From a virus (taxonomy: Duplodnaviria; Heunggongvirae; Uroviricota; Caudoviricetes), in the IMG/VR virus record IMGVR_UViG_2700989544_000010: a stretch of DNA of 17,037 nt. The stretch is one strand, 5' to 3'. The translations under genes and the position numbers were made by a program. Under the pieces are notes generated by a model. That model made no database searches. It had not been told where the DNA came from and was given only the letters and a program-made list of their open reading frames with translations. Positions 1 to 15,898 of this stretch are shown here, one piece after another; the stretch's first letter is position 1; every line of letters begins with the position of its first letter.

Positions 1-264
1 GGTTTCAGCTCCGGAGGACTCAAAGCCTTCCGGTGGTGTCTGCTCCTGCTCCCCGGCACGCCAGACCGCAGTCACACCGTGTATCACGGGATTACCGTCC
101 GTGTCCGTCAGCGGGGTTTTGTTCACCAGGATACTCTGCAGTCCCTTCACCGGGCCTTCTATCGGTCCCTCACCAATCGCATCAATCACACTCATCATCT
201 GCGTGGACTTAAGATTGTCCTTTGCCTCAACCGGCGTGTGCGCCCTGCCGCCACCTTTACCCAT
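1..264 (-). CDS. J: Tail tip / host-specificity protein J homolog, N-terminal fragment (continues beyond left edge of window)
   Basis: Minus-strand ATG at 264..262 opens a frame reading [52 protein letters not shown]..., which matches the remembered N-terminus of lambda gpJ. The frame is open to the window edge. Not in the ORF track because it is partial. Confidence 0.8.
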
Positions 265-397
265 AATGTTCATCTCAATTGGTATTATTAATCGCAGTGA
301 TAGGATATTGCACAGCTATTGCGCGATATCATCAGAACGCTGTTTGTTACCCTGTAACCAGCAAGCTCAGTCTGTTAACGGAATTAATGAGGGTTTT

Positions 398-925
398 ATG
401 AAATGTAAAATCATTGCTGCCATTGCCATGCTGACAGCAGCATCATGCGGATACGCAGCAGAACAGGAAGTCCCAATGAACCTTGTCAGTGCTGACGGAA
501 AAGAAGTCAGCATTGGAAAAATAACCATTCAGGAGACCCCCTACGGTCTGCTGTTCACACCAGCCCTTCACTCTCTGTCTGAAGGCATTCATGGTTTTCA
601 TGTGCACGAAAAAGGAAATTGCGCCCCGGCACTAAAAGACGGAAAACCGGTCGCAGCATTATCGGCTGGCGGTCACTTTGACCCGAAAAACACCGGCAAA
701 CATCTTGGCCCCTGGTCTCCGGATGGACACCTGGGCGACCTCCCTGCGCTGTTCGTGACGCATGACGGAAAAGCGAACTACCCGGTCCTGGCCCCGAGAC
801 TGAACTCATTAAAAGAGATTAAAGGGCGTTCTCTCATGCTTCATGCTGGCGGTGATAACCATCATGACCATCCGGAGCCCCTGGGCGGTGGTGGTGCGAG
901 AATGGCCTGCGGCATCATTCAATAA
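398..925 (+). CDS. sodC: Periplasmic Cu,Zn superoxide dismutase (phage-borne SodC)
   Basis: ATG at 398 is in frame with track ORF 101..925, with GAGGG about 5 nt upstream. N-terminus [20 protein letters not shown] looks like a signal peptide. Conserved Cu/Zn-SOD blocks are present: [39 protein letters not shown] and C-terminal [12 protein letters not shown]. The part of the track ORF upstream of 398 has no SOD similarity. Confidence 0.9.
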
Positions 926-932
926 TCAGTCA

Positions 933-960
933 GGTAAGGGGCGGGCCCCTTACCTTTATT
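933..960 (+). terminator. Putative intrinsic terminator of sodC (9-bp GC-rich stem GGTAAGGGG/CCCCTTACC, 4-nt loop, then TTTATT)
   Basis: Perfect inverted repeat 933..941 / 946..954 starting 8 nt after the sodC stop codon, followed by a T-rich tract on the plus strand only. Confidence 0.5.
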
Positions 961-1073
961 CCTCAGGACGATAAATCCTTTCTCCCTGAAAAGAACGGCA
1001 CATCCTCCCTCTCTGGGTTAATGTTTTTGTCGTGACATAAGAATAATTCCTTACACTCAATCTTCGTAACGCT

Positions 1074-1110
1074 CCCGCAGTTCCTGTCCGTGAGCACTGC
1101 GGGATTTTTT
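1074..1110 (+). terminator. Second plus-strand terminator-like hairpin (CCCGCAGT ... ACTGCGGG followed by ATTTTTTCGCTTTT)
   Basis: 8-bp inverted repeat 1074..1081 / 1096..1103 with a 14-nt loop and a T6 run on the plus strand. It lies just outside the stop codon of I (1116..1118). On the minus strand no U-tract follows, so it is unidirectional. Confidence 0.4.
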
Positions 1111-1115
1111 CGCTT

Positions 1116-1796
1116 TTATGCCTGCCGCCCGATAACCACCACCTTCCCGTCACCGCCTTCATCACGGGTACTGATGTCCTGGGATATACGGCGGGAGCCA
1201 ACCAGCATTTCCCCGTAAGGCACCGGCATCGGGTTCCCCTGGGCAATCATGTTATCCAGCGAGGAAAAGTACGTGTTCTGTCTGCCGTTATCCGTTGCGC
1301 GGTAATCCGGTACTTTAGCCTTCGGGGCAAGCATCTGAGCCACACCACCCAGTATCATGCTGGCTCCAAGTGAAAACAGCATCGTGGTGGCAGAAAAACC
1401 ACCGGCTGCCAGGGCTGAACCCCATAACGCCATTGATGCCCCGGCAGTGAAGAAAGAGCCCACGATGGCTGCCGCCCCCAGCACAATCTGCAGTCCACCC
1501 TTTCCGGCCCCGGCCAGTCGCGGCACAATGTGGATGACCGTTCCCTCACCCAGCTGTTCGTGAAGACGGGCGTACACCGCCTCCGGTGCCGTGTCCTCAC
1601 CGCGAATACGTATCTGGTACCAGCCTTCGTTCATCTGACGGCGGAATCCCGGCATCTGCATCGACAGGGCACGGATGGCTTCCGCTGCCGTGTTCACATA
1701 CAGGCTGAGGCGGCGGCCAAATCGTTGTAAATCCCCGTGAAGGCAGATACGTGCCAGTGGCGGTGACGCCAGGCTGAATGCGTTCGTCGTTGCCAT
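1116..1796 (-). CDS. I: Tail tip assembly protein I homolog
   Basis: Track ORF 1116..1796 (226 aa): MATTNAFSLASPPLARICLHGDLQRFGRR... with a hydrophobic Gly/Ala-rich centre and C-terminal NTYFSSLDNMIAQGN, matching remembered lambda gpI. Confidence 0.85.
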   Translation of the reverse strand: MATTNAFSLASPPLARICLHGDLQRFGRRLSLYVNTAAEAIRALSMQMPGFRRQMNEGWYQIRIRGEDTAPEAVYARLHEQLGEGTVIHIVPRLAGAGKGGLQIVLGAAAIVGSFFTAGASMALWGSALAAGGFSATTMLFSLGASMILGGVAQMLAPKAKVPDYRATDNGRQNTYFSSLDNMIAQGNPMPVPYGEMLVGSRRISQDISTRDEGGDGKVVVIGRQA

Positions 1797-2437
1797 TTTT
1801 CGGAATACCTCTCCCGTTTACTCAGTTGTTCAGGCAGATGGTGAAGCAGCTCACCGTTGCCGCAGTATATGGCGGCATGATTGGCCACCGATGCGCCAAA
1901 GCAGCACAGCAGGATATCGCCAGGCTGTGCGGAAGGCAGGGAAATCCTGTAAAAACCAGTCGCCGCCATATTGTCCAGGTAAAGGTTCTGACCGTTGCGC
2001 CACCAGTCATCCTCACGCACAAAATCCGGCAGCGTTATCCCCGCCAGATGGTATGCATCCCGGAACAGGGTGTAACAGTCCGTCACCCCGTGCTCAAAAC
2101 GACGCCCGGTCAGGTGCGGCACACAGCGGAATTTGTGAATTTCCCCCCGGCAGACCAGCCACCAGGGCAGGGCACTCTTTATCTGCAGCCGCCGGTCCGC
2201 CTCGCTCAGCCAGGGCAGACCACCAGGGTGGCTGTGAACCAGCGCCACAATCTCCCCCTGCATCTCTGCCTGCAGCCAGTCTTCCGGCGCAATACGAAAA
2301 TACGCCTCCGGCTCTGCAGAGATATTCACACAAGGGATATACCGTTCCCCCTCCGGCGTGCTTATCACGAAGCCGCACGACTCCGCAGGCGCACACCGCC
2401 GGGCATGCGCCAGAATCGCTGATTCAGTCTGTGTCAT
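1694..2437 (-). CDS. K: Tail tip assembly protein K homolog (JAB/MPN-like plus NlpC/P60-like domains)
   Basis: Internal ATG at 2437..2435 of track ORF 1694..2698 starts MTQTESAILAHARRC.... It contains a JAMM-like motif EIVALVHSHPGGLPWLSEAD and NlpC/P60-like Cys/His context (DCYTLFRDAYH ... NHAAIY). The 3' end overlaps I by about 100 nt in another frame, as I recall for lambda K/I. The track ORF residues upstream of MTQTES are judged non-coding extension. Confidence 0.85.
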   Translation of the reverse strand: MTQTESAILAHARRCAPAESCGFVISTPEGERYIPCVNISAEPEAYFRIAPEDWLQAEMQGEIVALVHSHPGGLPWLSEADRRLQIKSALPWWLVCRGEIHKFRCVPHLTGRRFEHGVTDCYTLFRDAYHLAGITLPDFVREDDWWRNGQNLYLDNMAATGFYRISLPSAQPGDILLCCFGASVANHAAIYCGNGELLHHLPEQLSKRERYSEKWQRRTHSAWRHRHWHVSAFTGIYNDLAAASACM

Positions 2438-3147: not shown

Positions 3148-3476
3148 CAGTTCACCACCTGCTTAAACTCGGCACTGAATTCAACCCGCAGCATGCGAAC
3201 CCGTGATGACCAGGCGGCACAGGTCACCTTTATCTGCCGCTAGGCATAAGGCGGTGTCCACAGAAACGCCTTCCAGCCACCGTGCTCTGCCAGGAATGCC
3301 TCCAGATGTCGGGCCTCCTCCCGGGTCACGGAAAGCGTCACACGGTATGTTTTCAGGTCAGCATTCAGCCCCGCCGCCATACGCTGCGAATACCCGTCAC
3401 CAAAACGCACTTCACGCACCGATGGCTGCGAGTTCACCTCCATATCCGGCTTCACTTTCCAGCGAAATGTTTTCAT
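3147..3476 (-). pseudogene. M: Tail protein M homolog interrupted by an in-frame TAG (amber) codon at 3242..3240
   Basis: Track ORF 3240..3476 gives MKTFRWKVKPDMEV...FLWTPPYA then TAG. Reading on in the same frame gives RQIKVTCAAWSSRVRMLRVEFSAEFKQVVN, ending at TGA 3149..3147, which overlaps the L start ATG. Both halves match lambda gpM, and the TAG sits where lambda has Trp in my recollection. Confidence 0.8.
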
Positions 3477-6028
3477 CGCCTGCCTCCGGAAAAGACGCCG
3501 CCATCACGCATCTGCGCCTGAATCTCATCCTGCGCCCCCTTGCGGGCCATGTCATACACCGCCTTCATCAGCTGCGGCCCCGCCTGTCCGTTGGTGCCGT
3601 CGTTCTGAATCACCACGTGATTGTTCTGATTAAAATTAATGCCTTCCGTCCGCCGCATCTGCGCCGGACTTCCGGCACCGCCGACATAACCGCCATCCGC
3701 ATACCCCCGCATCAGACGGTACAGGTTGCCGACACCAATCCGGCTGGTTGCCTCCTTCGTGAAGACAAATTCACCACGGTGAACAATCCCCGCTGGCTCA
3801 TATTTGTCGCCGGTTCCCGTAAATCCTCCGGTTGCAAAATGGAATTTCGCCGCAGCGGCCTGAATGGCTGTACCGCCTGACGCGGATGCGCCGCCACCAA
3901 CAGCCCCGCCAATGGCACTACCGATACTCCCGACTATCCCCACCATCGCCTGCTTCAGAAAAATCTCTGTCAGCATGGAGAGCACAGAACGGGTGAAACC
4001 ACGCCAGTTCTGTTCGCTGCCGGTCAGCATCGCTGCCATATTCTGTGCAATACCGTCAAAGGTCTGCGTGGCCACGCTTTTAACCTGCGAAAAACTGTCC
4101 GTCGCACTTTCTGCCCACTCGCCCCAGCCGGACTTCAGACCGGCCATCCAGCTTCCACGAAGCTGCTCCTCCGCAGACCAGGTGTTCTTCAGTGCAGATG
4201 TGGCCTTCGCCAGCGCATCCGGATTATCACCGTACACGTCACGAAGGCGCTGCTCTTCCGACTCCCGCTGCGCCTGACGGTCGGTGAGGCCGCGGGCTTT
4301 TGCGCTGATGGCTGCCTGCTTCGCGCTCTGCTGCTGTTCAAACCGCGCCGCCTGCTGTGCCAGCTCATTCAGCCGTTTCTGGTGTTCAACCTTGTCGCCA
4401 AGCTCAGCCAGCTGGCGTTTGTACTCCAGCGTCTCTTTCTCATGGGCCAGCAGGGATTTTTCCTGCTCAGATAACTGGCGTTTCGTGGCAGCCTCTTTCA
4501 GGACCGCATACTGATTTTCCGCTTTCCATAAATCGCGACGCTGCTGGCTGATTTTCTCATTCGCACCGCTGTGTTTTTCCAGCGTCCGGAGCTCGGTTTC
4601 AAGCGCCAGCAGGGCTGCATGCGCCCGGTCTTCCTGGCGCTCACCGGCAGACACCTTCACAGCAGATGGCTTTTTCAGCGTCGACTCATAATCCTTTTTC
4701 GCCGCCGCCATCAGCGTGTTGTAATCCGCCTGCAGGATTTTCCCGTCCTTCAGTGCCTTGTTCAGTTCTTCCTGACGGGCGGTATATTTCTCCAGCGGCG
4801 TCTGCAGCCGTTCGTAAGCTTTCTGCGCCTCTTCGGTATATTTCAGCCGTGACGCTTCAGTATCGCTCTGCTGCTGCGCATTTTTGTCCTGTTGACTCTG
4901 CTGTTCAGCCTTCTTTCTCGCGGCTTCAAGCGCAAGACGGGCCTTTTCACGATCATCCCAGTAACGCGCCCGCGCTTCATCGTTAACAAAATAATCATCC
5001 TTGCGCAGACTCCAGATGTCGTCCGCTTTCTTAAACGCAGCCTCTGCCTTAATCAGCATCTCCTGAGCGGTATCAGGACGACCAATATCCAGCACCGCAT
5101 CCCACATGGATTTGAATGCCCGTGCTGTCCTGTCTGCCCAGGTCTCTAGCGTACCCATGTTCTCTTTCAGGCGGCGGGTCTGGTCATCAAATCCTTTCGT
5201 CGCGGCCTCGTTCGCCGCCTGCAATGCCCCGGCTTCATCGCCGGAACGCTGCAACTGAGCAACATACGCAATCTGCTCCGCCGTCACGTTATGGAACTGG
5301 CGTGCCATCGCTGTCAGCCCTGACGTCGGGTCTGTGGTCAGCTTCCCGAAGGCTTCAGCGACCTTGTCCACCTCCACGCCGGATGCAGAGGAGAAACGCG
5401 CCACACTCTGGCTGATGGATGCAATCTGAGCCTCACCGCTTACTCCCGCCTTAACCAGTGCGCTGAGTGACTCGCTGGTCTGGTTAAACGTCAGCCCTGC
5501 CGCCTGCCCGGCTCTGGACAGGACCAGCATACGATCTGCCGTCAGACCCGACTGATTGCCGGAAAGGACCAGCGTTTTGTTGAAATCGGACAGGGTTGAG
5601 TTGCCCTGATACCAGGCATACGCCAGCGCACCTGTCGCCACCGCCAGCGAGGTGACCCCGACCATCGGCAGGGTGATCGCACCGGCAAGCCCCCTGAACA
5701 TGGGGATCATCCCGCCGAAGGAGTCCTTCACCTGACCGCCCTGTTGCAGCAGGATCAGCCAGGGATTCTGACCACCGGCAAGCTGCGTGGCGATATCCGT
5801 AAACTGTGCGGGCAGGGTTCGCATGGCCGCTTTATACTGCCCGACGGAAATCCCGGCTTTTTGTGCAGCCAGCGCCTGACGACTCAGGTTCTGCTCAACG
5901 ACACCGGCGGTTTTTCTGGCGTCAGTCTCCAGTCCGGAAAAATGACGCCTTACCCGGCTCATCTGCTCATCGAAACGGACCGCATCCAGACTCAGGTCAA
6001 TAACAAGATCACCAACCGGCTGGGACAT
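3473..6028 (-). CDS. H: Tail tape measure protein H homolog
   Basis: Track ORF 3473..6028 (851 aa): MSQPVGDLVIDLSLDAVRFDEQMSRVRRHFSG... is near-collinear with remembered lambda gpH. Its stop overlaps the M start (ATGA). Confidence 0.9.
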   Translation of the reverse strand: MSQPVGDLVIDLSLDAVRFDEQMSRVRRHFSGLETDARKTAGVVEQNLSRQALAAQKAGISVGQYKAAMRTLPAQFTDIATQLAGGQNPWLILLQQGGQVKDSFGGMIPMFRGLAGAITLPMVGVTSLAVATGALAYAWYQGNSTLSDFNKTLVLSGNQSGLTADRMLVLSRAGQAAGLTFNQTSESLSALVKAGVSGEAQIASISQSVARFSSASGVEVDKVAEAFGKLTTDPTSGLTAMARQFHNVTAEQIAYVAQLQRSGDEAGALQAANEAATKGFDDQTRRLKENMGTLETWADRTARAFKSMWDAVLDIGRPDTAQEMLIKAEAAFKKADDIWSLRKDDYFVNDEARARYWDDREKARLALEAARKKAEQQSQQDKNAQQQSDTEASRLKYTEEAQKAYERLQTPLEKYTARQEELNKALKDGKILQADYNTLMAAAKKDYESTLKKPSAVKVSAGERQEDRAHAALLALETELRTLEKHSGANEKISQQRRDLWKAENQYAVLKEAATKRQLSEQEKSLLAHEKETLEYKRQLAELGDKVEHQKRLNELAQQAARFEQQQSAKQAAISAKARGLTDRQAQRESEEQRLRDVYGDNPDALAKATSALKNTWSAEEQLRGSWMAGLKSGWGEWAESATDSFSQVKSVATQTFDGIAQNMAAMLTGSEQNWRGFTRSVLSMLTEIFLKQAMVGIVGSIGSAIGGAVGGGASASGGTAIQAAAAKFHFATGGFTGTGDKYEPAGIVHRGEFVFTKEATSRIGVGNLYRLMRGYADGGYVGGAGSPAQMRRTEGINFNQNNHVVIQNDGTNGQAGPQLMKAVYDMARKGAQDEIQAQMRDGGVFSGGRR

Positions 6029-10845: not shown

Positions 10846-11298
10846 TCATGGCATAGCCATGAGCATTTTCACGTCCGCATCACCGTCTGCTGACGTCTGT
10901 GGCACGCCACCCTGTACCGCTGCCGGTGAATGGTTCGCCATGATGCGTTCAAACAGGGCGGTTGTGGATGCAGAGACCGGTTCTGCCTTACCTGATCCCG
11001 CAGCCAGCACAGCCCGGGCGCTCTCCACAGTCATTCCCGGGCAGGCAGCCAGCTGTTCAGCCTGCGCCTCAGCCCCTTTTGCCTCATCCAGTGCCATGAT
11101 CTGATCACGGAGTGAGGGTCCGGCATCCGCCTGCGGTGAAGCAGCCAGGATCGGGCGGGCTTTTTCCACCGTCATCTCCGGCATCGCCGCCAGCGTTGCC
11201 GCCAGTTGTTCACGTCCTTTCGCTTCCTGGCATGTCAGGATCCCCATCACTCGCTGGTTCTCCTGCGCGGCGGCTTCCGTTGCAGTTAATTGCGGCAT
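10846..11298 (-). CDS. Nu3: Putative scaffold protein Nu3-like product from an in-frame internal start within C
   Basis: In-frame ATG at 11298..11296 (MPQLTATEAAAQENQRVMGILTCQEAKGREQ...) is preceded by a strong GAGGAGG Shine-Dalgarno 5-6 nt upstream. This mirrors the nested C/Nu3 arrangement of lambda. Confidence 0.55.
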   Translation of the reverse strand: MPQLTATEAAAQENQRVMGILTCQEAKGREQLAATLAAMPEMTVEKARPILAASPQADAGPSLRDQIMALDEAKGAEAQAEQLAACPGMTVESARAVLAAGSGKAEPVSASTTALFERIMANHSPAAVQGGVPQTSADGDADVKMLMAMP

Positions 11299-12201
11299 AG
11301 TGCCTCCTCTGACATTACTGTTCAGCGCCGTGGCCATCACACTGATGGCATCCGACGCATTGACTAATTCATCCGCCAGCCCGGCATCAATGCCGGACTG
11401 ACCTTCAAAAACGGCGGCCTCTGTTCCCGTGACGGCATCAACAGACAGACCGGTAAACATGGCCACTTTTTCGGCAAACATCCGGCGCGCCGCATCAATG
11501 CGCTGCTGCATGTCCTGGCGAACCTCTGCCGGTAAGGCTTCAAACTGATTGCCATCCACCTTGTGCGCCCCTGAGTAAATCAGCGTGATATCCACACCGG
11601 CCTGCGCCAGATGACCGGCATAGCTGACATGGCTCATCATCACGCCAATGGAGCCGATACGGGATGTCTGGGTAACCAGCCGTCGGGAGCAGGCCGACGC
11701 CAGCAGCATGGCTGCAGAACAGGCCGTGTCATTGCACAGTGCCCAGACCGGCTTCTGCTGACGGAGGCGGTAAATCATGTCAGCGCAGTCAAACGCGCCG
11801 GCGGCCTGCCCGCCCGGACTGTCAATGTCCAGCAGTACGCCCCGCACCTGGCTATCCGCCATTGCCTGCTGAAGACAGGCGACAATGCCGTCATAGCCTG
11901 TCATTCCGGAAAATGGCCGCATACCCCCCAGCCGGTACACCAGCGTGCCGGTCACCGGCAGTACAGCAATACCGTTCACCACCCGGTAAACACGGGCCGG
12001 TCGTTTACCTCCGGCCATGTACTCGTCCGTTTCAGCCAGCATTCCGGGAGCATCAAGCTGTACCTGCTGCTGTGGTACCGAAAGACTTGCTGCCCCCATC
12101 TCGCGCCCGAGCGCGCAAAAGAAAACCCGCGCATAGGCGGGCTCCAGAAGCAGCGGTTCATTGAATGCTGCGGCAATAATGTGTGAAAGATTACGTCTCA
12201 C
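10846..12201 (-). CDS. C: Head maturation protease / scaffold protein C homolog (S49/ClpP-like)
   Basis: Track ORF 10846..12201 (451 aa): MRRNLSHIIAAAFNEPLLLEPAYARVFFCALG...GVLLDIDSPGG...VWALCNDTACSAAMLLASACSRRLVTQTSRIGSIGVMM..., collinear with lambda gpC. Confidence 0.9.
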   Translation of the reverse strand: MRRNLSHIIAAAFNEPLLLEPAYARVFFCALGREMGAASLSVPQQQVQLDAPGMLAETDEYMAGGKRPARVYRVVNGIAVLPVTGTLVYRLGGMRPFSGMTGYDGIVACLQQAMADSQVRGVLLDIDSPGGQAAGAFDCADMIYRLRQQKPVWALCNDTACSAAMLLASACSRRLVTQTSRIGSIGVMMSHVSYAGHLAQAGVDITLIYSGAHKVDGNQFEALPAEVRQDMQQRIDAARRMFAEKVAMFTGLSVDAVTGTEAAVFEGQSGIDAGLADELVNASDAISVMATALNSNVRGGTMPQLTATEAAAQENQRVMGILTCQEAKGREQLAATLAAMPEMTVEKARPILAASPQADAGPSLRDQIMALDEAKGAEAQAEQLAACPGMTVESARAVLAAGSGKAEPVSASTTALFERIMANHSPAAVQGGVPQTSADGDADVKMLMAMP

Positions 12202-13783: not shown

Positions 13784-13986
13784 AACCTCACTCCCAGCGG
13801 ACGACGGCGACGCCGGGTTGTCCCCAGTACCGACTCCGCATCATTGATCGCCCGGTTAAGCTCATCCAGAGAAGCCGCCGTATATTCAATTCTGCGACCA
13901 TCTTTCTGGACAGACACCACCCGTTTACCGGTTAATAAATCAAGGCGCGCCTGACGCAGCGCCTGCAGTTCAGCGACTGTAACCAT
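13780..13986 (-). CDS. W: Head-tail joining protein W homolog
   Basis: Track ORF 13780..13986 (68 aa): MVTVAELQALRQARLDLLTGKRVVSVQKDGRRIEYTAASLDEL..., same length and motif (TGKRV..VQKDGRR) as lambda gpW. Its start overlaps the 3' end of A. Confidence 0.85.
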   Translation of the reverse strand: MVTVAELQALRQARLDLLTGKRVVSVQKDGRRIEYTAASLDELNRAINDAESVLGTTRRRRRPLGVRL

Positions 13987-15898
13987 TCACTCCTCCGGAC
14001 AGCTTCGCTGCCAGTTCTTTCAGGGTTGGCCGGGTCGTCTCTTCTTCCCGGGATTTTGCCAGTACAGCCAGATCAAGCTGCCAGCGTTGCACGGACACAC
14101 GTAATGCCGCGTAGGCATACACCAGGCAGTCCAGCGCTTCGTTACGCCGCTTTTTGTTATCCCACAGCAGACGCATCTTTCCTTTTTCCCACTTCTCCAC
14201 CAGCTCTTCCGCCACCAGTTGCTGCGCCTCTGTCTGCGAAAAAATCTCCGGATCATCAGGAAAACGGATGGCATACGACGTGGCTTCATCCGCAGGCGAG
14301 GGATCGGCTTTCATACGGGCATAGAGAATTTCTTTTGCGGTGTCCGTTCCCACTTCACACAGATACACGCCCCGCTGATTGCGGGTTTTTGGCATGGTGA
14401 TCACCGGCTTGCCATAGACAGATGCGCCTTTTACCGGCAGCCCCCGGAAAACACCGTGTTTTTTTGATCTCTGATAAACAATTTCACCATCGATCCCCCC
14501 GGTGTCCCAGCAGACACGGGAAATAGTCATTTCGGTGCCATCCGCATGGCGGTATTTTTTGTTGATCGCCGCATCCACACGTAACAGCGTCTCTTCCTCA
14601 TCAGGACGCCCCATAATGATGATTTTATCCACCAGAAAGGCTTCCTCTCCCGGAGCCCATCCCCAGACATACATCTCAAAACGGTTTCGCTGCGAGTCAA
14701 TGCCCGCCGTCAGATAAACCACCCGGGCAGGCACCGCCGCCGTGTAACGCACCACCTTATCCATCAGTACCTAGTGATCGAGTTTTTCGCCCACGGCCTC
14801 TTCCCAGGTCTCGCCCAGCGTGGTGTTCACAAAGGTTTTCAGGCCGTTGGGATCTTTCAGTGCATCCAGCCAGTCATAGACAATCTGTACCCAGGTGGTG
14901 AACGGACTGTACGCCGTCCAGATATGGAACGTGATGGAGCGCGGCGGCGGAATTTCATCACCCCGGGCGCTGAAAAACGTCAGACCGTCACGGGTCCACA
15001 TGCCCGTGTTTTCACAGATCCACCGCCCGTTGCTCTGGTCCAGTTCAGACTGATGGATCACGCAGCCATGATGTTCACAGAGGTAGAAAACACTTTCAGG
15101 GCTGTCCTTCTCCCATTTAAGCCCAAAAGGCGTGGACTCATCGCCAAATTTCAGATACTGCTCCTCCCCACAGTGCGGGCAGGGCACATAAAAACGCATA
15201 AAATGCGCCGACTCGTTAGCGGCTTTTTCGATCTGGCAGGTGCCTTTGATTTTAGGCGTCGAGCCGCGAATGGATTTTGGCCACACCGACCCCTCAATAC
15301 GCTTATCCCCCAGCAGGGTTGGCGAGCCCTCTTTTTCGACATCCGGCTCGAACGAGGAAAGTTCGTCATAGCAGACCACGTCCACGGATTTTTCACGGTA
15401 GTTTTTGGCGGCAGCGCCGCCCAGGCACCAGAAACCGACGCCCGATGAAAAGCGTTTCAGCGTGAGAGTATTGTCACGATGTTTACGACCCAGCCATGGG
15501 GAAAGGTCTTTCAGGCATGGCACGTTCCGAATCGTCGCCTCCACGTGAGACTTCATAAAATCTTCAGCGGCAGAATCCGTGGGCTGAAAAAGCAGACTGT
15601 TTCGGGATTTATGCTCAATAAAATACCCGACCACCCCCAGCAACATCTTTGTATAGCCAACACGGGCAGATTTAATCAGATTAACAGTGCGGATCTGATC
15701 ATTCCCCATGCTGTTCATGATGGCGATCTGGAATGGCAGCGTTTTCCATTCGCCCTCACCATATGAAGATTCTTTAGGCAGATAATAATTTTGATCAGCC
15801 CATTCAACTGGCGTCACCGGCAATGCCCTTATCAGGGGCTGTAATGCAGTTGTGACAGCGCTCATCATATTATTCAGTTGTTGCTCTGATATATTCAT
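13970..15898 (-). pseudogene. A: Terminase large subunit A homolog, interrupted by an in-frame TAG codon at 14773..14771
   Basis: The N-terminal part is in track ORF 14771..15955 from internal ATG 15898 (MNISEQQLNN..., Walker-A-like KSARVGYTK) and ends ...TTLGETWEEAVGEKLDH-TAG. The same frame continues VLMDKVVRYTAAVPARVVYLTAGIDSQ... as track ORF 13970..14764. The combined length matches lambda gpA, and the TAG replaces a sense codon (Glu in lambda as I recall). Confidence 0.85.

Follow-up and report, generated by a model that had tools for sequence, protein, structure and literature searches.

A prophage sodC-F cassette beside a promoterless PasB-family small RNA body in the I-J spacer of a lambda-like tail operon

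Lambdoid prophages of Escherichia coli O157:H7 and of Salmonella carry periplasmic Cu,Zn superoxide dismutase (SOD) genes, and here we describe the surroundings of one such gene, sodC, in IMG/VR virus record IMGVR_UViG_2700989544_000010, a tailed-phage sequence (Caudoviricetes) of 17,037 nucleotides (nt) that was analyzed as a whole and is called the window below. The gene lies between tail genes I and J, on the strand opposite to both. The closest described system is SodC-F1/SodC-F2 of O157:H7 lambdoid prophages (D'Orazio 2008, BMC Microbiol 8:166, PMC2569942), in which gene, leader, and prophage setting are the same and nothing of substance is different, apart from the fact that the window's copy sits in an apparently defective prophage. 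That study described a lipobox (AASC) together with a signal peptidase I site at residues 20/21 in both proteins, partition between membrane and periplasm, a dimeric enzyme with activity and stability above those of chromosomal SodC, and a measured SOD activity of 19380 U/mg for SodC-F1. It also detected SodC-F in anaerobic cultures and in exponential phase, and reported its rise relative to chromosomal SodC in bacteria recovered inside Caco-2 cells and its contribution to peroxide resistance; literature on the O157:H7 protein further describes a protease-resistant, thermostable enzyme. The D'Orazio paper does not describe the cassette boundaries or a neighboring small RNA (sRNA).

The second described neighbor is PasB of prophage PP6 in enteropathogenic E. 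coli (EPEC) E2348/69, an expressed, Hfq-dependent RNA (Pearl Mizrahi 2021, Sci Adv, PMC8550237), as shown for the E2348/69 copy only. PasB and the window share position, antisense orientation, terminator stem, and an AATCTTC-type motif; the window has a different body variant, and its -35/-10 is missing because of the sodC cassette. Two Salmonella phages offer parallels for the cassette itself. SodCIII of Fels-1 occupies the same I-J slot in the same orientation, antisense to the tail operon, and has an ordinary signal peptide and 60.5% amino acid identity to the window's SodC; only 53 base pairs (bp) separate its sodC stop codon from gene I, so there is no PasB-like body. SodCI of Gifsy-2, which is virulence-associated and dimeric, is likewise encoded by an antisense prophage sodC moron in a lambda-like tail module, but in a different slot, between a lom-like gene and L, and with 58.8% amino acid identity to the window's SodC. 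The three proteins are 59-61% identical to one another. A comparison of flank and promoter DNA among the window, Fels-1, and Gifsy-2 found no sharing above the level of shuffles (score of 22; the shuffles averaged 17.7, and 37 of 300 did as well).

The lambda genes bor and lom are classical morons as Hendrix and colleagues defined them. Like them, the window's cassette is extra DNA between conserved phage genes, with its own predicted terminator, a distinct base composition, and, as far as analogy can tell, expression from the prophage and a benefit to the host. It is unlike them in being antisense to the late operon and in having replaced resident spacer rather than being a clean addition. 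We consider it very likely that positions 265-1009 are a lysogenic-conversion cassette (moron) with sodC-F and that positions 1010-1115 are a resident PasB-family body without its promoter. The parts of this junction, with guanine-plus-cytosine (GC) content given as a fraction, are:

265-1009, plus strand: sodC moron proper, 745 bp, delimited by the lack of a match in close sodC-less relatives and by a diversity trough
265-397, plus strand: sodC upstream region, GC 0.39, where the promoter probably lies; its other strand is the J ribosome-binding region
316-347, plus strand: 32-nt block identical between two cassette alleles about 20% apart (alignment with the cM8a allele)
398-925, plus strand: sodC coding sequence, 175 amino acids plus stop, identified by Pfam and NCBIfam family matches, with the Shine-Dalgarno sequence GAGG at 389-392
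932-964, plus strand: predicted sodC intrinsic terminator with a 10-bp GC-rich stem, a 4-nt loop, and an interrupted U-tract (UUUAUUCCU), from fold energy and conservation
1010-1115, plus strand: resident I-proximal spacer with a complete but promoterless PasB-family body, by homology to the JLK-2012 and E2348/69 copies
1028-1110, plus strand: equivalent of the published 83-nt PasB, by position and sequence identity
1073-1110, plus strand: hairpin 2, the PasB-family terminator, with a 9-bp stem (1073-1081/1096-1104) and T6 at 1105-1110, by fold and conservation
1-264, minus strand: opening 88 codons of J, the tail tip gene, from the start codon at 262-264 (match to positions 1-88 of NCBIfam lambda_TipJ, E 1.8e-50; annotated gpJ in relatives)
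1116-1796, minus strand: tail assembly gene I (Pfam Lambda_tail_I, E 5.5e-16; annotated as tail assembly protein in relatives)

The limits of the cassette are seen in comparison with close relatives that lack sodC. In BLAST searches against these relatives, homology is confined to positions 1-264 and 1010-1900, and 265-1009 is unmatched. The sodC-less phages, including JLK-2012 and many Stx1a and Stx2c phages, have near-identical I and J genes and carry 132-142 bp of unrelated spacer where the window has 265-1009. Toward J, the homology reaches exactly to the start codon of that gene, and the cassette thus also supplies the J ribosome-binding region. We surveyed the spacer in the 80 IMG/VR loci that share at least 97% gpI identity with the window. 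Spacers of 851-852 bp with sodC were found in 26 loci, spacers of 234-259 bp without sodC in 42, and spacers of 342-343 bp without sodC in 11, with one locus not classifiable, so that the cassette is present in 26 and absent in 53 loci at the same junction.

An earlier note on this DNA, made from the letters alone, had proposed a sodC insert of about 850 bp and had named relatives lacking the insert as the comparison to make. It took the spacing in lambda as its baseline, calling it short. At 60 bp, the lambda I-J spacer is indeed short, but this length is found in none of the 80 surveyed loci, and the spacers of 234-343 bp in close sodC-less relatives are the proper reference. Since sodC-less relatives have a spacer of about 240 bp and none has one of 60 bp, the event was a replacement, in which 745 bp took the place of the spacer's J-proximal part. 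Thus, the I-J gap in the window does measure 851 bp (265-1115), but the added unit is only 265-1009, which replaced the 132-142 bp mentioned above.

The same limits appear in nucleotide diversity among the 26 sodC-bearing sequences, which is 0.049 in the J 5' end, about 0.001 in 265-1009, 0.014 in 1010-1115, and 0.036 in I. Segregating sites number 4 of 745 in the cassette versus 117 of 939 in I and J together (Fisher p 4e-26). This trough argues for a discrete unit that recently spread over diverged backbones, and the rise in diversity at 1010 marks its end. The cassette therefore seems to behave as expected of a moron, with a recent spread as a unit that would have proceeded by recombination between diverged lambdoid backbones. 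Base composition also sets the moron apart from the surrounding phage genes, with a GC of 0.39 upstream of sodC and 0.525 in its coding sequence versus 0.60 in I and 0.59 in the J 5' end. The flanks of sodC had been called AT-rich, which is correct for 265-397 and for 1010-1115 (0.44) but not for the DNA just downstream of the gene (929-1009, 0.53).

The J-proximal part of the spacer shows further variation. The J ribosome-binding region carried by cassette DNA (265-300, minus strand) reads …TTGAGATGAACATT-ATG and looks weaker than the AAGAGGTGA of sodC-less relatives. The sodC-less spacers of 42 IMG/VR loci have a J-proximal, terminator-like hairpin with a T-run in the direction of the late operon (1806-1829, minus strand, in locus L002). 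It has the form CAGGCAxCC...GGxTGCCTG followed by TTGTTTTT, with a compensatory C:G to T:A change between variants, and it was removed by the sodC cassette and is absent in the window. A third type of junction is formed by the 342-343 bp spacers (L128, L134, L140, and eight other loci), in which about 100 extra bp lie J-proximally and contain a plus-strand terminator-like hairpin of their own, AAACCCCGGTATC...GATACCGGGGTTTTCTTT. Given this third type, the spacer seems to have a general site for swapping small cargo in its J-proximal part.

As the earlier note had it from the letters, the reading frame at 398-925 is a complete Cu,Zn superoxide dismutase gene, on which family profiles, ligands, and structures agree; its type is the prophage type SodC-F. 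The protein search suggested at that time gave matches above the cut-offs to Pfam Sod_Cu PF00080 (E 3.9e-32, 111.9 bits with a cut-off of 28.9, profile positions 3-133 of 133) and to the NCBIfam SodC equivalog NF007628 (218.4 bits with a cut-off of 165, positions 2-172 of 172). Solved bacterial SodC structures match at E ~1e-62, and the metal-binding motifs align, including with 1z9n. All copper ligands (H68, H70, H93, and H149) and zinc ligands (H93, H102, H111, and D114) are present, as are the disulfide pair C75-C171 and the catalytic R168, and all of these residues sit in the canonical motifs FHVHE, GGHFDP, KH, GHLGDLP, HAGGDN, and GGARMACG. At all but one of its residues (174 of 175, 99.4%), the product is identical to the SodC of a prophage in O157:H7 strain ATCC 35150, and it has the leader expected of SodC-F, in which the signal peptide (residues 1-20) combines a lipobox AASC at residues 14-17 (nt 437-448) with a signal peptidase I site at 20/21. 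This near identity and dual signal peptidase I/II leader place it within SodC-F and, together with the Fels-1 and Gifsy-2 parallels, bear out the suggestion of a prophage-borne periplasmic SodC of the kind known from enterohemorrhagic E. coli (EHEC) and Salmonella. By analogy with the literature on near-identical genes, the window's copy would be expected to have an active, RpoS-independent promoter and to yield a dimer of dual location, high activity, and stability that protects against peroxide.

In the proposed mechanism, the cassette would work as a self-contained unit, made of an upstream region with the promoter, a Shine-Dalgarno sequence, a 175-residue precursor, and an intrinsic terminator, and sodC would be transcribed against the silent late operon of the prophage. 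The signal peptide would double as a lipobox, and the exported SodC would remove superoxide in the periplasm and at the membrane, to the benefit of the lysogen. Fused to lacZ, the 299 bp that precede the start codon of sodC-F in O157:H7 were active, and independence from RpoS was stated with data not shown (D'Orazio 2008, PMC2569942). In the window, our best guess for the core promoter or operator of sodC is the 316-347 block, which contains a -10-like TATCAT at 327-332. A candidate picked by eye, TTGGTA at 279-284 and TGaTAGGAT at 298-306 with a 16-nt spacing, was dropped as it is not conserved in the cM8a allele. Looking by eye for a PhoP box or an FNR site, we saw nothing convincing.

Downstream of sodC, hairpin 1 (932-955) folds at -17.9 kcal/mol (z -2.5) and is followed by the U-rich tail TTATTCC, which gives the moron a predicted terminator of its own; its stem is kept in the cM8a allele, and the loop differs. 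Hairpins 1 and 2 are each beaten by only 2 of 200 shuffles in folding, and both have a T-run on the plus strand and none on the minus strand, as the earlier note had observed. That note had taken this orientation to be what lets late transcription through to J. A more basic reason is available. Lambdoid late transcription is Q-antiterminated, and it would pass the hairpins whichever way they face. During lytic growth, Q-modified polymerase would thus read through the cassette to J.

Beyond the cassette, the I-proximal spacer matches a validated sRNA gene. PasB is an 83-nt RNA at NC_011601 1466343-1466261 on the minus strand, detected with the Northern probe AATCCCGCAGTGATCGCGGAGCT (Pearl Mizrahi 2021, PMC8550237, table S6). 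This interval lies between gpI (ending at 1466255) and gpJ (starting at 1466496), antisense to both, and corresponds to 1762-1844 (minus strand) of our locus L168, where I ends at 1756 and J starts at 1997 (spacer 1757-1996). The probe matches the E2348/69 I-J interval exactly, and its first 12 nt match window positions 1095-1106. Window positions 1028-1110 likewise lie between gpI and gpJ in antisense, with the terminator abutting the I stop codon, and are identical to E2348/69 PasB at 60 of 83 positions (72%), including the whole terminator stem. The hairpin of this terminator (1073-1104) folds at -16.1 kcal/mol, and its T6 ends 5 nt from the I stop codon.

The 1010-1115 block is conserved in sodC-less phages, where it ends at the hairpin CCCGCAG...CTGCGGG plus T-run, adjoining the I stop codon; hairpin 2 is found in all their spacers. 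The JLK-2012 variant is identical to the window region at 105 of 107 nt and is preceded by a promoter-like site on the same strand, TTCACA-16-AATAAT (10/12). In an alignment of 24 distinct sodC-less spacers and in the RNA bodies extracted from them (loci L088-L167), the promoter region is conserved, as is an AATCTTC-type motif, and the body measures about 95 nt. The bodies fall into at least six sequence variants, published PasB being one of them, and the terminator stem is invariant in nine sequence variants of the PasB-family RNA. All 26 sodC-bearing loci share one junction and one body variant, with the terminator stem unbroken.

The PasB sigma-70 promoter (TTCACA, 16 nt, TATAAT/AATAAT) is absent from the window by both consensus scan and alignments: relatives read ...TTCACA...TAATAAT, and at this place the window has ...GGCACATCCTCCC followed by TCTCTGGGTTAATG. 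It thus holds a promoterless PasB copy rather than an intact gene. A scan of the window and two sodC-less relatives at Rfam gathering thresholds gave no match, and PasB is not found in this way. The history of the missing promoter may be seen in a rare sodC allele with 80% amino acid identity, present in strain cM8a and five other genomes (six in total; L170 2488-3391). In this allele, sodC, the sodC terminator, an intact PasB promoter (11/12), the body, and its terminator stand in tandem. By comparison, the common sodC allele resembles a derivative form from which about 45-50 bp, with the PasB promoter among them, have been lost. The cM8a-type allele is likely an intermediate form. Overall, a resident I-J spacer of about 240 bp houses the cassette in its J-proximal part, and its I-proximal part is the body and terminator of a presumably Hfq-dependent PasB-family gene whose promoter was lost in the dominant sodC allele.

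Several observations weigh against a recently arrived, self-sufficient moron. A consensus scan of positions 1-1800 found no sigma-70 match of at least 9/12, including in 265-397, where the earlier note had also seen no convincing -35/-10; the location of the promoter rests on a reporter fusion from another strain and a block that two alleles have in common; the interruption in the U-tract of terminator 1 makes its efficiency uncertain; and the prophage looks defective, with a nonsense codon in terL. Moreover, diverged sodC genes occur in the same slot in Fels-1 (60% amino acid identity) and in the rare E. coli allele (80%), which makes the association of slot and sodC older than the recent sweep. 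These diverged copies also speak for another history, in which sodC is the ancestral I-J occupant among these phages and its loss gave rise to the spacers of about 240 bp: the Fels-1 gene has the same orientation, its product has an identity to the window's SodC (60%) not far from the 66-74% of the flanking I, J, and K proteins, and the second E. coli allele lies between I and J as well. We regard this history as highly improbable. The cassette is near-invariant over backbones 4-5% apart, which points to recent spread and not long residence, and the sodC-less spacers contain two things, neither of which resembles a deletion scar: an experimentally validated PasB gene that is complete and retains its promoter, and the J-proximal hairpin. 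The window lacks a promoter that both the sodC-less and the cM8a forms have kept, so its form is the derived one, and no homology is detectable between the cassettes of Fels-1, Gifsy-2, and the window in their non-coding flanks.

The two hairpins allow different readings of the downstream half. Both lie downstream of sodC on its strand with T-runs, and the earlier note had read them as a tandem terminator pair of sodC. That hairpin 2 would physically stop any read-through is sound, and it can serve as a backup in this sense. As an account of origin, a tandem pair is already contradicted, given that phages without sodC have conserved hairpin 2 along with the preceding 60 nt, that these coincide with the mapped PasB 3' end and the Northern probe, and that diversity rises at 1010, where the cassette ends; hairpin 2 is a resident PasB terminator that did not arrive with sodC, and we hold the tandem view to be improbable overall. 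A somewhat different possibility is that the PasB-like body is still expressed as an sRNA derived from the 3' untranslated region of sodC, by read-through of the sodC terminator and processing, with sodC-F regulation driving it. The body is intact (by the comparison with the promoter-bearing JLK-2012 copy), its terminator stem is unbroken in 26 of 26 sodC-bearing copies, and it begins only 54 nt after terminator 1, whose interrupted U-tract would favor leakage. Terminator 1 nevertheless has a strong 10-bp stem, and the diversity of 1010-1115 (0.014) exceeds that of the cassette more than 10-fold, for which backbone history and relaxed constraint would be equally good explanations. Expression by this route is a tentative idea and rather doubtful. 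We give similarly low credence to the broader proposition that the cassette either captured the resident PasB-family sRNA in this manner, as an Hfq-binding RNA under sodC-F control, or silenced PasB. If silencing is true, the sweep of one allele switched a PasB-family sRNA off in about 10% of E. coli genomes.

A link between sodC-F and PasB appears neither in the SodC-F paper (PMC2569942) nor in the main texts of two Pas papers (Pearl Mizrahi 2021 and a 2026 bioRxiv survey), and a literature search on sodC with EHEC small RNAs gave nothing relevant. The anti-sRNAs AgvB and AsxR (Tree 2014) were considered and set aside: they are described downstream of PR' and not at I-J, and the supplement of that study does not mention sodC. 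Returning to the moron with an adjacent PasB-family body, the moron itself adds nothing new, and the gain is a cleaner anatomy of a very common prophage junction, including the exact cassette limits, along with evidence that the cassette moves as one unit between tail modules that have diverged. In E. coli lambdoid prophages, the I-J spacer can be described as an accessory slot of two parts, one a J-proximal segment open to swapping and the other a PasB-family sRNA gene. The corrected anatomy and the adjacency of sodC-F and PasB are a small addition, relevant for work on PasB distribution or sodC-F regulation, as the two lie side by side and the common sodC allele has no PasB promoter.

The cassette is widespread in E. 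coli. Among 5426 complete genomes, 547 (~10%) carry it, annotated as sodC, and the same number have both the I and J flanks; a genome may contain up to five copies, and 542 of 549 cassette records are at least 99% identical. Many of the bearers are Shiga toxin-producing E. coli (STEC) or EPEC. Annotation shows the I-sodC-J arrangement in two Stx2a phages as well (96% nucleotide identity), O157:H7 prophages match it at 99%, and the exact SodC sequence of the window occurs, named SodC, on at least 1000 public contigs. The sodC moron is thus already known, being annotated in hundreds of genomes and having a biochemically characterized product. In a donor scan of a one-genome-per-species collection, the best SodC proteins among the matches listed had 62-69% amino acid identity (Serratia, Pseudomonas, and others), and none of the 80 loci listed there is flanked by homologues of I, J, or K. 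The genome closest to the whole window is that of a bovine E. coli from Okinawa (99.6% identity), in which a gene for an EspF-repeat effector adjoins the prophage. This gene, the STEC and EPEC carriers, and the IS629-like end described below make the earlier note's hint at an EHEC/Shigella-type host reasonable, and a host of EHEC or EPEC-like type is plausible, not proven.

As a whole, the window covers the late region of a lambda-like prophage, with head and tail genes that run on the minus strand in the order terminase, portal, protease, capsid, tail genes, tape measure, M, L, K, I, and the start of J. Its tape measure gene is:

3473-6028, minus strand: tape measure gene

The terL gene (13970-15898, minus strand) has an in-frame stop at codon 376 of 642 (window positions 14771-14773). 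With just 2 differences in 1991 nt, the closest relative has an intact gene. Judging from the stop codon, packaging is probably defective in the prophage. The S49 protease/scaffold gene (10846-12201, minus strand) is 50 amino acids shorter than that of the closest relative, owing to an in-frame 150-bp difference. At the far end of the window, positions 16921-17037 are the left end of an IS629-like element of the IS3 family, whose orfA begins MTKNTRFSPEVRQRAIRMVLE. It disrupts a YlcI/YnfO-family gene that is intact in the closest relative.

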